Below, piece by piece: positions 23,372-27,666 of a DNA stretch of 27,666 nucleotides (its first letter is position 1; every line of letters begins with the position of its first letter). The translations under genes and the position numbers were made by a program. Origin of the DNA: an uncultured Candidatus Saccharibacteria bacterium (GTDB lineage: Bacteria; Patescibacteriota; Minisyncoccia; Phycocordibacterales; UBA918); the NCBI GenBank assembly GCA_964442205.1, contig CAYTYF010000002.1:19336-47001 (forward strand), written 5' to 3'. Below the pieces are notes generated by a model that searched no databases, was not told where the DNA came from, and saw only the letters and a list, made by a program, of their open reading frames with translations.

Positions 23372-23637
23372 GGCGACAAGCATACCGTGTCGGTCTGTGG
23401 TCAGCAAAGGATAAATCTTGGTCCCCTGCTCTACATGACCATAACTCACACCTAAGTCTCAAATGTAACTGGAGCGGCATGGCGTGAAGGTCTAGTTTCC
23501 AACGCTTTTGACCAATTAAAATAGGCTTTTTCCTAGATTCGGGAGCTGTCAAAACAAGGTATTTTAGAAGAAACCATGGATACTCAATTTATATTTGGTA
23601 GGTATACTATGGATTAACTAAATAGTAAGCAACAATT

Positions 23638-23859
23638 ATGGAACATAAAGTGATACCTTTTCATCCAACAGTGACAGACAAAGCTGGCTTTTCACAAGCC
23701 GCTAAAGAGTTAGAGGACATCATTAAAACCCAGAGCAGTCAGGGTTGGCGATTCGTCTCATTGCAGTCAATGTCAACCACAGTGAAGCCGACTGGCTGTG
23801 CGTCAATTGGTGGCAAAGAGGAAGTAAAAACATTCCAACTCGTCATCTTCGAAAAATAG
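23638..23859 (+). CDS. Small protein, DUF4177-like
   Basis: 73 aa: EHKVIP...ELEDII...QGWRFVSL...LVIFEK. Confidence 0.6.
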   Translation: MEHKVIPFHPTVTDKAGFSQAAKELEDIIKTQSSQGWRFVSLQSMSTTVKPTGCASIGGKEEVKTFQLVIFEK

Positions 23860-23862
23860 TTT

Positions 23863-24165
23863 ATGTTAGCGTCCTTGTGTAAAGCGGTGATACGACTCTA
23901 CTGGTACGCAATCCCAAAGGAGAACCGTATTGTCTGTCTCTACAAAGATCATTGCTCACAGCACGTATACAACGCTTTTGACCGTGAGGGCTTTGTTGCC
24001 GGAATGAAGGCATTTTTGAAGCGATACAAAAACTGCAATAATAACTATACCTGTGAACTTCATGATGGTTCAGTAACTGTAAAGACGGCGACAGGAGAAG
24101 TCATTAATGAAACTGAAATAAGTGATTTAGTGCTTTCGGGTTGTCGGGTGGTCCTAAATAAATAA
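23863..24165 (+). CDS. YidD-like (membrane protein insertion efficiency factor / haemolytic domain) protein
   Basis: IRLYW.AIP...CLYKDHCSQHV...GF..G...F..RY..C cysteine pattern. Confidence 0.7.
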   Translation: MLASLCKAVIRLYWYAIPKENRIVCLYKDHCSQHVYNAFDREGFVAGMKAFLKRYKNCNNNYTCELHDGSVTVKTATGEVINETEISDLVLSGCRVVLNK

Positions 24166-24375
24166 ATTTACATTCGATAAGAGAACCGCAAAGCACTTTC
24201 ATTTCAATAGCAATTACATTGTCGATACCCACGAAGAGGAAGGTTTCAACCAAGAGGGGCGGCTCTCAGTCCTCGAGTGGGAACTGTGCCTTGCTTGATT
24301 AAGCGAGACAAGGGTTTGTTTCCGGTGATAGGGGAGAAAGTGGTTCCTCTGGGTTGGTAAGGAGATGCGTGTAGA

Positions 24376-24636
24376 CTATCCGTACAGCTCACTATGTGAA
24401 CCAATAGCAACAAATCTCACGATATTATTATCGATAACAAAATACACAGCTCGGGTGTCTCCAGTAACGTTGATACTAAAGTGGTCTTTCCATTTACCAG
24501 AAAGACGATGATTGCGCAGAGTGGGATTTTGTGGATTCTTCACAAATTTTTCCAAAGTAGCAACAGCTTTCTCTTTGGTTGCTTTCGATAATTTAGCAAA
24601 ATCTTTCTCAAATCGCTTTGAAAGAACGTATTGCAT
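24376..24636 (-). CDS. YafQ/RelE-family type II toxin
   Basis: KRFEKDF.KL...LRNHRLSGKWKDHFSINVTGD.RAVY...IGSHSELY. Confidence 0.9.
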   Translation of the reverse strand: MQYVLSKRFEKDFAKLSKATKEKAVATLEKFVKNPQNPTLRNHRLSGKWKDHFSINVTGDTRAVYFVIDNNIVRFVAIGSHSELYG

Positions 24637-24637
24637 A

Positions 24638-24919
24638 TCACAGAGACTTCAGGTGAGCAATAAAATCCTCTCCAGTTTTGAACGGACCAACGAAATCACC
24701 AGCTTCGTATTCAGCCTGAGCTTGCTCAAGAATACTCTCCAGATACGGAGTAGGGCGGTATTGGTTGGCAGAAAGAGTGATTTCTTTATCACGCACAAAC
24801 TGCTTAAGGAATGCATTAATGACGGTACTCAAAGGCACACCCAATTCCTCTGACACTTTCTTAGCTTCAGCTTTTAGTTTTTTGTCAGTTTTGATATTTA
24901 AAATAGTGTGTGTATTCAT
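24638..24919 (-). CDS. RelB/DinJ-family antitoxin
   Basis: RHH pattern LNIKTDKKLKAEAKKVSEELGVPLSTVINAFLKQFVR; ends 1 nt before the toxin start. Confidence 0.9.
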   Translation of the reverse strand: MNTHTILNIKTDKKLKAEAKKVSEELGVPLSTVINAFLKQFVRDKEITLSANQYRPTPYLESILEQAQAEYEAGDFVGPFKTGEDFIAHLKSL

Positions 24920-24920
24920 A

Positions 24921-24955
24921 TACCAAAGTATATATTTTGGTATTATTTATGTCAA
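24921..24955 (-). promoter_or_regulatory. TA operon promoter with overlapping operator palindrome
   Basis: TTGACA (24955-24950), 17-nt spacer, TATACT (24932-24927). TACCAAA-N8-TTTGGTA palindrome at 24921-24942. Confidence 0.7.
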
Positions 24956-24975
24956 TTACTCAATCTGCTCAATCT

Positions 24976-25334: not shown

Positions 25335-25673
25335 ATGCAACATCAAATGAAACTTGCCACTGAACCATTCAACAAAGTTGCTTCAGGAGCAAAGGTTATC
25401 GAGTCTCGTCTTTACGATGAAAAACGTCAGCAAATAGCTATGGGTGATGAAATCGAGTTTAGCGAAAATGACAATTCTGACAACAAGGCGAAAACAATTG
25501 TAAAAGGATTGCTTCGTTACAAAACCTTTAATGAACTATTTGCTGATCTCAACCCAGCACTCTTTGGAGAGCAGGACAGGGATTTTCTTTTGAATCAGAT
25601 CAAACAGTTTTACTCTGACGAAGACGAGCAAAAATACGGAGTGGTAGGAATACGTCTTCAGCTCATTGACTAA
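25335..25673 (+). CDS. ASCH-domain protein
   Basis: MKLATEPFNKVASGAKVIESRLYDEKRQQI..GDEIEF signature. Confidence 0.85.
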   Translation: MQHQMKLATEPFNKVASGAKVIESRLYDEKRQQIAMGDEIEFSENDNSDNKAKTIVKGLLRYKTFNELFADLNPALFGEQDRDFLLNQIKQFYSDEDEQKYGVVGIRLQLID

Positions 25674-25780
25674 CTAATAGTAGATAAGTATTGTACGGAC
25701 CGTATCCAACGAGGGCACGTAAACCTTTTGTTGCTCAAGGAGTACTACTCCTCGCAACAAGTCAACAAAGGAGTCCTTTG

Positions 25781-25939
25781 ATGATACGAGTTAGAAAGGT
25801 AAGGCCAGATGACCTACCGGTCATCGCCGAGATGATGCACAACACTTTGGAGCCTTACTACGGGGGTGACCATCGTGCCCATGCGCGTCGCATTGTAGAA
25901 ATCGAGGGCGGCTACCGGGAATTGTCCCGCTTTTTCTAA
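25781..25939 (+). pseudogene. N-terminal fragment of a GNAT-like protein cut at the tRNA-His direct repeat
   Basis: AAGGAG SD, then MIRVRKVRPDDLPVIAEM...RAHARRIVE. The frame runs into the element at ~25905 and stops inside it. Confidence 0.6.
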
Positions 25940-26100
25940 ACCCACTACGCTCGTTAAGAACGCTGGACGCGACTCACCTGTTTTGGCATTAGGAATAGCC
26001 GAAACATGGCTCCGCCGTTCGATTCCCGGACGAAAGTGCCGCAGGGCACTTTCTTAAGCCGCCCACGAAAAAATCTCCCAAAGGGAGATTTTCCATGGGC
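25905..26100. mobile_element. tRNA-3'-end-associated structured element, tRNA-His-matched copy 2
   Basis: 25905-25922 equals tRNA-His region 27611-27628. 25907-26028 matches 24976-25097 with one mismatch in 122 nt. Insert AC GAAAGTGCC GCAG GGCACTTTC T. The spacer hairpin differs from copy 1. Confidence 0.85.
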
Positions 26101-26210
26101 GACGTTGTAGAGGATGTTCGAACCGTGTTTGAGCAAAAGAATGATATGAGTATTTTTATTCCAGTGTTTGCATAAAGAAACCGCCTCCCCACAAGAGGGA
26201 AGGCGGAGGG

Positions 26211-26678
26211 TCAAGAACGGGTGATTTTTTCTGCAGCACGCCTGGCTACCCGAGCGACGTCAATGCGTCCACCAAGAGTCTCGTAGTTTTGCCAAGAGAC
26301 CTCCTCTACCTCAGCATTTGGTTTCAGCATATTGAGGTCGGTGATAGTTCCGGAGAACATTACAACTGTGTCGCGCTTACCTTCACCTACTGTTTGGTAT
26401 TCACCGATCTGTACCAGATCTACAACATCGACACCAAGTTCCTCTCGTACTTCTCGGACAGCAGCTTGTTGAGGTGACTCCTTTTCTGGATTATAGCCAC
26501 CGCCCGGAATATTCCAGAGGTTCCGGTTACCATATGTGTGCCGGATGATGAGCACTTCGTTCGGTCGCTCAGGGTGTCGCAAGAGGACTTTCACACCGAA
26601 CGTTTGTGGCTTGCGAACACGCCAGTACAGCCGCACAGTGGGCATTACGAGCCAGAGGATGTATTGTTTGAGACTCAT
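26211..26678 (-). CDS. Nudix hydrolase
   Basis: WNIPGGGYNPEKESPQQAAVREVREELGV Nudix box. Confidence 0.88.
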   Translation of the reverse strand: MSLKQYILWLVMPTVRLYWRVRKPQTFGVKVLLRHPERPNEVLIIRHTYGNRNLWNIPGGGYNPEKESPQQAAVREVREELGVDVVDLVQIGEYQTVGEGKRDTVVMFSGTITDLNMLKPNAEVEEVSWQNYETLGGRIDVARVARRAAEKITRS

Positions 26679-26683
26679 ACCAA

Positions 26684-27394
26684 TTAGTACCTTATCCTCG
26701 CATTGATCTCGTCATTATAGCGGACTCGCAGCATTCTTCTCCGCCCAGAGAAAGGAAGTCGATCATGAAGAGTGATGATGTTGTTCACGAACATCAGCTC
26801 ACCAATACTCCATTTATGAGTGACAATCAGACTTTCGTCCAGAATTTGGTCTATCCTTGCATACATCTCGTCCTCGGACAGGCTACCAGAACTGATGACT
26901 CGGTTGGTGACAACTTTCGAACGGAAACGCAATGTGCCACCCGAGTCTGGAACCACTAATGGATAGCGTACGCGCTCAGTTGGATTTGCAAGAGCGGAGT
27001 ACTCAATGATCGCTCCAGAAAGTTCTGGCTCAGCAGACACTCTTTGGGCGGCAAGACGTCCGTCAAACAATCGAGTCTCTCCGCCTGTGTCCGACGGAAT
27101 TACGCACCCAAGTGCGAAGTAGGGAATAATTCCGCTCGTGTTTGAAATACCTTCAGTATGAACCGAGAGGATTTCGTCCGAACCAGTGCTGTCAAGTGTG
27201 TGATAGCCCATATTGATGCTTTGTAGCATCTGGCCAACGAGAGTGGAAATTGTGAGCATATCGCTCTCCACTTTCTCATTAACGTCCTCTACTTGCAGCA
27301 ATGCCCACCCAACAGTTTGCAGGCTGTCCTGTAGGTCGGGCCAGATTTTCTGCCTGATTGAGGTGTGTCGATTGATGGTCAACCTTTTGTTCAT
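26684..27394 (-). CDS. TauD/TfdA (clavaminate-synthase-like) Fe(II)/2OG dioxygenase
   Basis: HTEG (HxE), LGC..PSDTGGET.LFDG and HKW..GELMFVNN...LHDR..F.G.RRMLR motifs. Confidence 0.8.
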   Translation of the reverse strand: MNKRLTINRHTSIRQKIWPDLQDSLQTVGWALLQVEDVNEKVESDMLTISTLVGQMLQSINMGYHTLDSTGSDEILSVHTEGISNTSGIIPYFALGCVIPSDTGGETRLFDGRLAAQRVSAEPELSGAIIEYSALANPTERVRYPLVVPDSGGTLRFRSKVVTNRVISSGSLSEDEMYARIDQILDESLIVTHKWSIGELMFVNNIITLHDRLPFSGRRRMLRVRYNDEINARIRY

Positions 27395-27612
27395 TTCAGC
27401 CTTCCTAAATTAAAAGAACAGGCTCTCAAGACATCTTGAAAGCGGCAAGACGTAAACTACAGAAGTTTTTACACTTTGTACAGAGAGAAGCAGAACATTG
27501 AGTTTTTCATCTATTTCAGTGAGAAAATAGTACTCATTTCCCATTTGGGTCAGTTCGAGCCAATTTCAAATGACTAGGAGTTGCAACATGAAATACCCAT
27601 CATTTTAACTAG

Positions 27613-27666
27613 GGCGGCTACCGGGAATCGAACCCGGATAGCCGGTACCACAAACCGGAGTAATAA
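27613..27666 (-). tRNA. tRNA-His(GUG), 3' part only (5' end beyond the window)
   Basis: Anticodon arm CCGGT-TTGTGGT-ACCGG, T-arm CCGGG-TTCGATT-CCCGG, acceptor 3' strand TAGCCGC with C73. Confidence 0.93.

Follow-up and report, generated by a model that had tools for sequence, protein, structure and literature searches.

A stack of small units behind tRNA-His in an uncultured Saccharibacteria genome, probably left by large serine integrases

The tRNA-His locus described here lies at one end of a 27,666-nt stretch of DNA (the window) from an uncultured Candidatus Saccharibacteria bacterium (assembly GCA_964442205.1, contig CAYTYF010000002.1, positions 19,336 to 47,001). The window closes with the 3' part of a minus-strand tRNA-His(GTG) gene. 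Moving outward from this tRNA, the order is tRNA-His, a TauD-family gene and a Nudix gene with a short conserved tail, a structured element, an ASCH unit, a second copy of the element, a RelB-YafQ toxin-antitoxin unit, and then YidD-like and DUF4177-like genes. A first reading of this DNA, made from the sequence alone, had called these genes (RelB as DinJ), and the calls were upheld by Pfam. The same reading had named a 42-codon frame a GNAT fragment; Pfam gave no matches for this N-terminal fragment, which is unconfirmed, nor for the end blocks seg1 and seg2 described below. Genes in the array run on both strands. No recombinase gene was found inside the array of the window, in agreement with the sequence-only reading, and the nearest one lies outside the window (Table 1).

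The array is marked by repeats. Two direct copies of a 122-nt repeat, at 24976-25097 and 25907-26028, are 99% identical. The repeat starts with the 16-mer GGCGGCTACCGGGAAT, which is present at 24976, 25907 and 27613 and had 0 matches in 100 shuffles of the sequence. The third copy of this 18-nt repeat (27613) is the 3' end of tRNA-His itself, and the sequence common to the tRNA and the internal copies is only 18-19 nt long. Spacing from repeat to repeat is 1706 and 931 nt, as first reported in rounded form (~1.7 and ~0.9 kb). Beyond the 122 nt, the match drops to 73% and reaches ~25172 and ~26100 through two hairpins (A and B), the stems of which differ between the two copies by compensatory changes. 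Across 22000-27666, Rfam at E<=1 gave nothing besides the tRNA. The 122-nt repeat and the three copies of the 18-nt tRNA-His tail are confirmed as real and not due to chance.

The complete tRNA-His gene is found on another contig (C24:14667-14739). The contig of the window (C2) stops inside the tRNA, C24 stops exactly at its last base, and the two ends overlap by 55 nt. Since the contig ends meet at tRNA-His in this way, the assembly graph branches there. Strain differences beyond the tRNA may be the cause of this break.

Read in the sense of the tRNA, the array holds at least five units, each closed by a tRNA-His-like terminus (...GCCC). The sequence-only reading had counted two cassettes; each of these is a cargo unit plus a copy of the structured element, and RelB-YafQ is a unit in itself. 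The cargo units (1, 3 and 5) end in three short conserved blocks, seg1, seg2 and seg3, which occur several per array in relatives. In the tRNA sense their termini are ...GTCGCCC for seg1, ...TGGCCC for seg2 and ...GTAGTCGCCC for seg3, and conservation breaks off sharply at these termini.

Table 1. Features of the tRNA-His array and its surroundings, from the tRNA outward (window positions unless another contig address is given)
Feature	Position	Strand	Basis or remark
tRNA-His(GTG), 3' part, array anchor	27612..27666	-	Rfam tRNA match, 28.2 bits; 5'-truncated by contig/window end
Discriminator (last base) of tRNA-His	27612	-	Array begins beyond
Unit 1: TauD-family gene, Nudix gene, terminator, end block seg1	26097..27611	-	Pfam, terminator scan
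TauD-family gene, unit 1	26684-27394		Pfam
Nudix gene, unit 1	26211-26678		Pfam
Terminator, unit 1	26181-26206		Terminator scan
seg1, severed C-terminal tail of a large serine integrase	~26097-26175, stop codon 26173-26175	+	Reads GDVVEDVRTVFE...IPVFA
Unit 2: bare tRNA-trailer element, copy 2	25906..26096	-	Repeat comparison, family profile
Unit 3: truncated open reading frame, ASCH gene, end block seg2	25169..25905	- (tRNA sense)	Pfam, relatives
Truncated 42-codon N-terminal frame abutting the junction, unit 3	25781 to ~25905	+	Open reading frame
ASCH gene, unit 3	25335-25673	+	Pfam
seg2, conserved 35-codon reading frame (GQSPNLILTILSDQEYMSGVKEKLA...)	25170-25277 (conserved block 25169-25259)	+	Relatives
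Unit 4: bare tRNA-trailer element, copy 1	24976..25168	-	Repeat comparison, folding
Unit 5: RelB-YafQ toxin-antitoxin unit, end block seg3	24256..24975	-	Pfam, promoter scan, relatives
Promoter, unit 5	24927-24955		Near-consensus, 11/12 positions matched
RelB	24638-24919	-	Pfam
YafQ (YafQ/ParE)	24376-24636	-	Pfam
seg3, closing unit 5 with ...GAGCCGCCCC at 24256	24256-24364		Recurs in relatives
YidD-like gene	23863-24165	+	Pfam
DUF4177-like gene	23638-23859	+	Pfam
Conserved TerC-like core gene	starts 23449
Nearest recombinase, intact 442-aa large serine recombinase	G000:C2:12574-13899		Outside window, 5.4 kb before its start

The locus was compared across 26 oriented tRNA-His loci of the genus, with relatives taken as species-level representatives. 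The number of units behind the tRNA ranges from 0 to at least 7; some loci have nothing recognisable there, and five have a single copy of the structured element. An empty-site comparator is provided by genome G066, where the promoter and start of the RelB unit, in a truncated copy, directly abut tRNA-His, and where the window has 2.6 kb more. G066 also has a full RelB-YafQ copy after a seg1 junction, 3 kb away, and the unit was found in G055 and L037 as well. RelB-YafQ stands at rank 5 in the window and at other ranks in G066 and G055, with different left neighbours. The TauD-Nudix pair is at rank 1 in the window, and homologous TauD-Nudix cargo (59% and 53% amino acid identity) is at rank 2, after a different left neighbour, in G053 and G010. 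Unit sizes are mostly 0.2-3.8 kb, with more than 5 kb only where a unit bears an integrase or is possibly merged. The comparison across relatives had been proposed by the sequence-only reading, and its expectation held: cargo content and order vary, and the locus is not invariant.

The sequence that follows the junctions falls into a few types, R1-R5, which follow tRNA-His itself in some genomes and seg1, seg2, seg3 or the direct repeat of the structured element in others. Within a unit, the start and the end are linked: R2 goes with seg3 (3/3), R3 with seg1 (3/3), R4 with seg2 (3/3), and a hairpin-A start with the direct repeat (10/10). Across junctions the partners mix freely, and every start type was seen after at least three different left types, the tRNA included. 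Linked ends with free junction partners are the pattern expected of units that move whole.

The nature of seg1 points to the enzyme involved. This block is ~26-27 codons long, begins exactly on the unit junction and, judged from its sequence, is the cut-off end of an integrase. The window's seg1 matches the tail of an integrase remnant in G014 at 67% over 27 aa (E 3e-6). Where a remnant of the integrase C-terminus comes after a seg1 junction, in G014 and G058, its frame runs on as ...ELIL(S/T)W/GDVVEDVRT.FE...IP..., which is seg1. Among 128 genomes, seven long integrase frames (502-592 aa) and shorter remnants cease matching at the junction, and the tail-only matches, the window's copy included, sit in frames of 29-127 aa. 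seg1 copies differ mostly at third codon positions, that is, synonymously (judged by eye), which is explained if seg1 is a severed integrase tail. The block is also site-specific: in the 16 genomes with both features assembled, 26/26 copies lie on the contig and strand of tRNA-His, 0.4-16 kb downstream. The site on the side of the mobile element would therefore lie inside the integrase's own gene. An early reading of seg1 as a micro-ORF or antitoxin fragment was replaced by this evidence.

Two further observations on these blocks can be added. The longest array met carries six seg1 copies on one strand within 19 kb (G002:C17:1585-20685); tRNA-His was not found in the G002 assembly. The R1 block (L153 4092-4150 and others) has on its opposite strand a promoter-like TATATAA and then AAAATG(N)T/GGGC, which provides an in-frame ATG for the severed tail. 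Either severed tails may be expressed as small peptides through this arrangement, or the sequence may be a binding site.

seg2 and seg3 may be integrase tails too, by analogy only with seg1. seg2 copies in 6 other genomes of the genus show 74-84% amino acid identity, and nearly all of their differences are synonymous. The block is confined to open frames of 31-69 aa, some with a stop codon directly upstream (7/121 genus genomes). seg3 recurs in relatives with 1-3 copies per array.

Large serine recombinase (LSR) genes were found at this same site in relatives. In G022, G001 and G063 (one clade), G056 and G076, they come immediately after tRNA-His and point towards it; in G012, the LSR gene is 2.6 kb from the tRNA, within unit 1. 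Three tRNA-His-linked LSR lineages are mutually 24-34% identical. In G022, G063, G076 and G056, the integrase frame crosses the junction into the antisense tRNA (...ELILTW/GDYRESNP...). The gene is interrupted in G001, where a 155-aa frame with the C-terminus extends to the junction. Integrase-bearing units are at rank 1 in every case. The Resolvase, Recombinase and zinc-ribbon architecture is present in the G063 protein, which overlaps tRNA-His, and in the copy on C2 of the genome studied here. The crossover position is resolvable only to the shared last 4-19 nt, and no far edge could be assigned to the integrase-bearing elements of G022, G001 and G063. As for an LSR island, the units are stacked and have copies of the attachment sequence at their borders, recombinase-less units included, and a three-domain recombinase stands at the site in relatives and not inside the window's array. 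The sequence-only reading had named an ordinary integrase island as the alternative to its own view. This applies in part: LSR elements of relatives occupy the same site, and the array of the window is without an integrase.

We consider it likely that the stack was left by serine-integrase elements that inserted serially at the tRNA-His tail and then lost their integrase. Integrative elements with an LSR would use the 3' end of tRNA-His as their attachment site. The element's own site would fall within the final ~30 codons of its integrase gene, and integration would cut that gene. The body of the integrase would land against the tRNA, reading into it antisense, and the tail would remain at the element's opposite end. 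Newcomers would each enter at the tRNA and displace older elements outward, and the older ones would shed the integrase body and retain their end blocks. The structured element would be a separate second player that was layered twice into the same site, which would explain both the 122-nt and the 18-nt repeats. In the simplest history, insertions of integrase elements and of the structured element would alternate at the tRNA end, with the newest closest to the tRNA. Every junction would have an LSR origin, and integrase-less units would be moved in trans. Iterative accretion by an enzyme acting in trans was also the proposal of the sequence-only reading. Small integrase-less units, the variable locus, the empty site and the shifts in rank speak for it; in this genome, present mobility of the units in trans is putative.

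Several points weigh against this history. Classical LSRs are not known to act again on attL or attR, and therefore stacking would require a relaxed site choice; such relaxed choice is known for Ccr. The R1-R4 starts are not integrase coding sequence, and therefore the units are not simple deletion derivatives. An intact parent gene for seg2 or seg3 was not found in 121 genomes. The linkage counts come from a small sample of related genomes, and some junctions were possibly missed or merged. Cargo identity among relatives is only 50-80%, hence the events are old. The LSRs linked to tRNA-His are without a close homologue in the genome of the window, where the best match has 26-36% identity, and the LSR clade closest to its own copy adjoins tRNAs in only 4/30 loci, so this clade is a weak candidate for a helper.

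The genome has three or four serine recombinase genes or fragments. The LSR on C2 converges on tRNA-Arg(GCG), ~1 kb from the 3' end of that tRNA, and no copy of the tRNA-Arg(GCG) tail was found downstream of it. Its paralogues are fragments on C9 and C72 and a distant copy on C1.

The structured element, here called the bare tRNA-trailer element, was taken by the sequence-only reading as the punctuation between cassettes. This role was not borne out. In the tRNA sense, the element consists of the terminator-like hairpin A, the reverse complement of the tRNA tail, a core of ~100 nt and a direct copy of the tail. In copy 1, hairpin A is at 25129-25172, hairpin B at 25098-25122 and the 18-nt tail copy at 24976-24993, and the folding z-score is -8.5. 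In copy 2, the reverse tRNA-His tail is split by the 9-bp hairpin B (26030-26054) and the direct copy has 19 nt (25906-25924). With a profile built on both His copies and one Val copy, ~20 copies were found in the 929-kb, 98%-complete genome, nearly all immediately behind tRNA genes and sharing their sense. Behind most tRNAs of the genome, the T-arm/acceptor 3' strand of the tRNA recurs as its reverse complement at +40-80, and the last 14-21 nt of the tRNA recur as a direct copy at +120-220. The exact 46-nt core pattern had 0 matches in metagenomes. A looser core pattern found ~100 further loci from metagenomes and Parcubacteria metagenome-assembled genomes (MAGs), with at least 17 tRNA specificities, where a tRNA on the same strand precedes the element by 100-145 nt and is matched by the direct copy. 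Both window copies carry the arms and the core, which makes them members of the family. They are placed atypically, 1.5 and 2.4 kb from the tRNA and behind cargo, as are ~5% of the ~100 loci. The element is thus a member of a genome-wide tRNA-trailer family and not the cassette recombination site of the tRNA-His locus.

The two window copies form a mosaic. The core and direct repeat are 99% identical, and hairpins A and B are 27% different with fully compensatory changes, which looks as if one part of the element had been recopied or converted and the other had not. As a gauge of the strand of a possible RNA, wobble pairs were counted over 349 pairs, giving 11 G.T and 6 A.C. At the border of direct repeat and core (24985-24998 and 25916-25929), the plus strand has a 5-bp hairpin and then a T run, similar to a terminator, and the opposite strand resembles a T-arm mimic. 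Elsewhere in the genome (G000:C30:6976-7244), the reverse copy behind tRNA-Thr(GGT) fits that tRNA, and the direct copy fits the T-stem of the neighbouring tRNA-Thr(CGT). This suggests that the tail of one of the two Thr features was exchanged.

Another possible explanation is that the bare element itself is active. It would insert at tRNA tails, form the direct repeat by target duplication or by copying, and capture or carry cargo, and the integrase tails would be incidental. Its presence behind most tRNAs here and at the ~100 other loci, with arms that always match the local tRNA, would fit this, as would the existence of tandem copies, nine cargo units that start directly after its direct repeat, and the partly recopied appearance of the 122-nt part. 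Set against these points, ~95% of the copies are without cargo. Conserved start and end blocks of their own mark the cargo units, which are also met in arrays that have no bare element at all. The element has no enzyme linked to it, and no reverse transcriptase was found in the genome. We regard an active bare element as improbable.

A true integron-like system is still less probable. Here, folded single-stranded hairpins that mimic the tRNA end would be recombined in trans by the host's Xer, on the pattern of attC or of CTX-phage attP. The reverse and direct tail copies of the element can pair, its extra-helical hairpin is kept by compensatory changes, and the 6-7 nt of identity at the junctions is the size of a tyrosine-recombinase overlap. 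The genome also has Xer as its sole tyrosine recombinase, an Xer-like PF00589 gene on another contig and not near a tRNA. Joined unit ends (circle form) fold no better than integrated junctions (mean -16.3 vs -19.2 kcal/mol, 35 units). No IntI was found, no tyrosine recombinase (PF00589) is present in the 21 tRNA-His loci searched, and serine integrases are physically fused to the tRNA-His site. No attC (R/L boxes, folded bottom strand) was detected, judged by the unit ends, which are tRNA-tail mimics or the integrase tail, and by folding, without an attC model. The sequence-only reading had likened the locus to an integron. The layout part of this comparison stands: like integrons and clusters of attC sites lacking integrases (CALIN), the locus has small head-to-tail units, mostly of one to three genes and with a toxin-antitoxin pair among them, beside a fixed site and with no integrase in view. 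Unlike integrons, it is associated with a serine recombinase, has genes on both strands, and includes a RelB-YafQ unit with its own near-consensus promoter. The array is not an integron.

That nothing moved in this genome, and that the pattern stems from tandem duplication, unequal crossing-over at the 122-nt repeat or mis-assembly, is very improbable. In its favour, the 99% identity suits homologous recombination and the contig does end at tRNA-His. Against it, the two repeat-bounded segments carry unrelated genes, their flanking hairpins differ with compensatory changes, the contig passes through both repeat copies, and relatives have the same architecture with other cargo.

The serine-integrase reading may extend to other tRNAs. 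At Ala, Trp and Gln loci from metagenomes and MAGs (L209, L302, L219, L266), cargo before the bare element closes with a pseudo-T-loop (AGTTCGAAC-like), followed after ~14 nt by the final 6-7 nt of the cognate tRNA, the same design as in seg1. Judging by these termini, related integrases may have specialised for different tRNAs via the short 6-7-nt match.

Some features at the edges of the array should also be mentioned. The YidD-like and DUF4177-like genes are probably accessory; no homologues were found in any relative locus fetched, and the outer (distal) edge of the window's island could not be placed. The synteny of the TerC-like gene with tRNA-His is not kept in more distant relatives. 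Exact-protein look-ups with YafQ and with ASCH gave no further contig. An ASCH homologue (73% identity) adjoins a serine recombinase in L195 (G051:C74), and another (41% identity) follows directly after two tandem bare elements in L258, a metagenome contig. ASCH may be a recurrent passenger.

Among known systems, staphylococcal cassette chromosome (SCC) and pseudo-SCC composite islands occupy the rlmH (orfX) 3' end and are moved by the large serine recombinases CcrAB and CcrC. The array resembles them in the LSR class, in insertion at the 3' end of a conserved gene that is left intact, in tandem units with short copies of the target end between them, and in recombinase-less units that are thought to move in trans. 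It differs in having a tRNA target, much smaller units, a site inside the integrase gene so that the tail is severed, several unrelated LSR lineages, and a host from the Candidate Phyla Radiation (CPR).

Accretion of cis-mobilizable elements (CIMEs) is a second parallel. Passages of PMC5704250 (citing Pavlovic 2004 and Bellanger 2011) describe elements that keep attL and attR without an integrase and are stacked with an incoming integrative and conjugative or integrative and mobilizable element. Units 1, 3 and 5 likewise keep conserved ends without a recombinase. The CIME cases in those passages are few, large, derived from conjugative elements and mostly served by tyrosine integrases; here, there are many units of one to three genes with families of end blocks. 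CIME-like movement of these units is suggested by comparison, the same cargo being found at different ranks.

A third parallel is given by the tycheposons of Prochlorococcus. As portrayed in parts of 10.1101/2020.12.28.424599, they reside in streamlined genomes and integrate at tRNA genes, leaving partial tRNAs, and in their tRNA-linked islands newcomers push older elements inward. Tyrosine recombinases were reported for 910/937 of them, and a minority use large serine recombinases (10.1101/2020.12.28.424599). Tycheposons as described there are larger and often carry replication genes, and split-integrase tail blocks are not among the features set out in those parts.

For the bare element, the nearest printed likeness is found in tRNA-linked repeats of E. 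coli, which are also tail copies downstream of the tRNA. The last ~18-19 nt of a tRNA reportedly recur there directly downstream of the tRNA gene. These repeats are not known to have a reverse copy, a hairpin B or a conserved core. The repeats (Egan and Landy 1978; Rudd 1999) are mentioned in a passage of PMC8144298.

SCC composite islands, CIME accretion and tycheposon islands are the closest systems in mechanism and layout, and the enzyme class is already known. What distinguishes the array are its miniature and numerous units, the split-integrase site, the sharing of one tRNA tail by several unrelated integrases, the interleaved trailer element and the CPR host. A literature search did not find a published description of such stacked arrays at CPR tRNA flanks.

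CPR bacteria (Patescibacteria) have genomes of less than 1 Mb with few recognised mobile elements, which raises the question of how they acquire and reshuffle accessory genes. If the serine-integrase reading holds, these arrays would be a concrete route for accessory-gene gain in CPR, with one tRNA tail serving as the landing site for several unrelated serine integrases. Decayed units of one to three genes would accumulate there, with orphan genes, toxin-antitoxin pairs and enzymes of nucleotide housekeeping as their cargo. As a simple sequence marker, the split-integrase tail would help to find arrays and unit boundaries in metagenomes, and the integrases, with their short sites derived from tRNA, are candidates for site-specific tools. 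What is truly new may be how the arrays interact with the ubiquitous tRNA-trailer element. A bolder and rather doubtful idea is that the bare element is a portable spare attachment site and that, with serine integrases acting in trans, the flanks of tRNA-His and of other tRNAs in Parcubacteria form a gene-capture platform, in organisms that otherwise appear to be without the customary routes of gene exchange. If this were true, each element laid down would supply a fresh copy of the tRNA tail, and the system would be the serine-recombinase counterpart of the integron.

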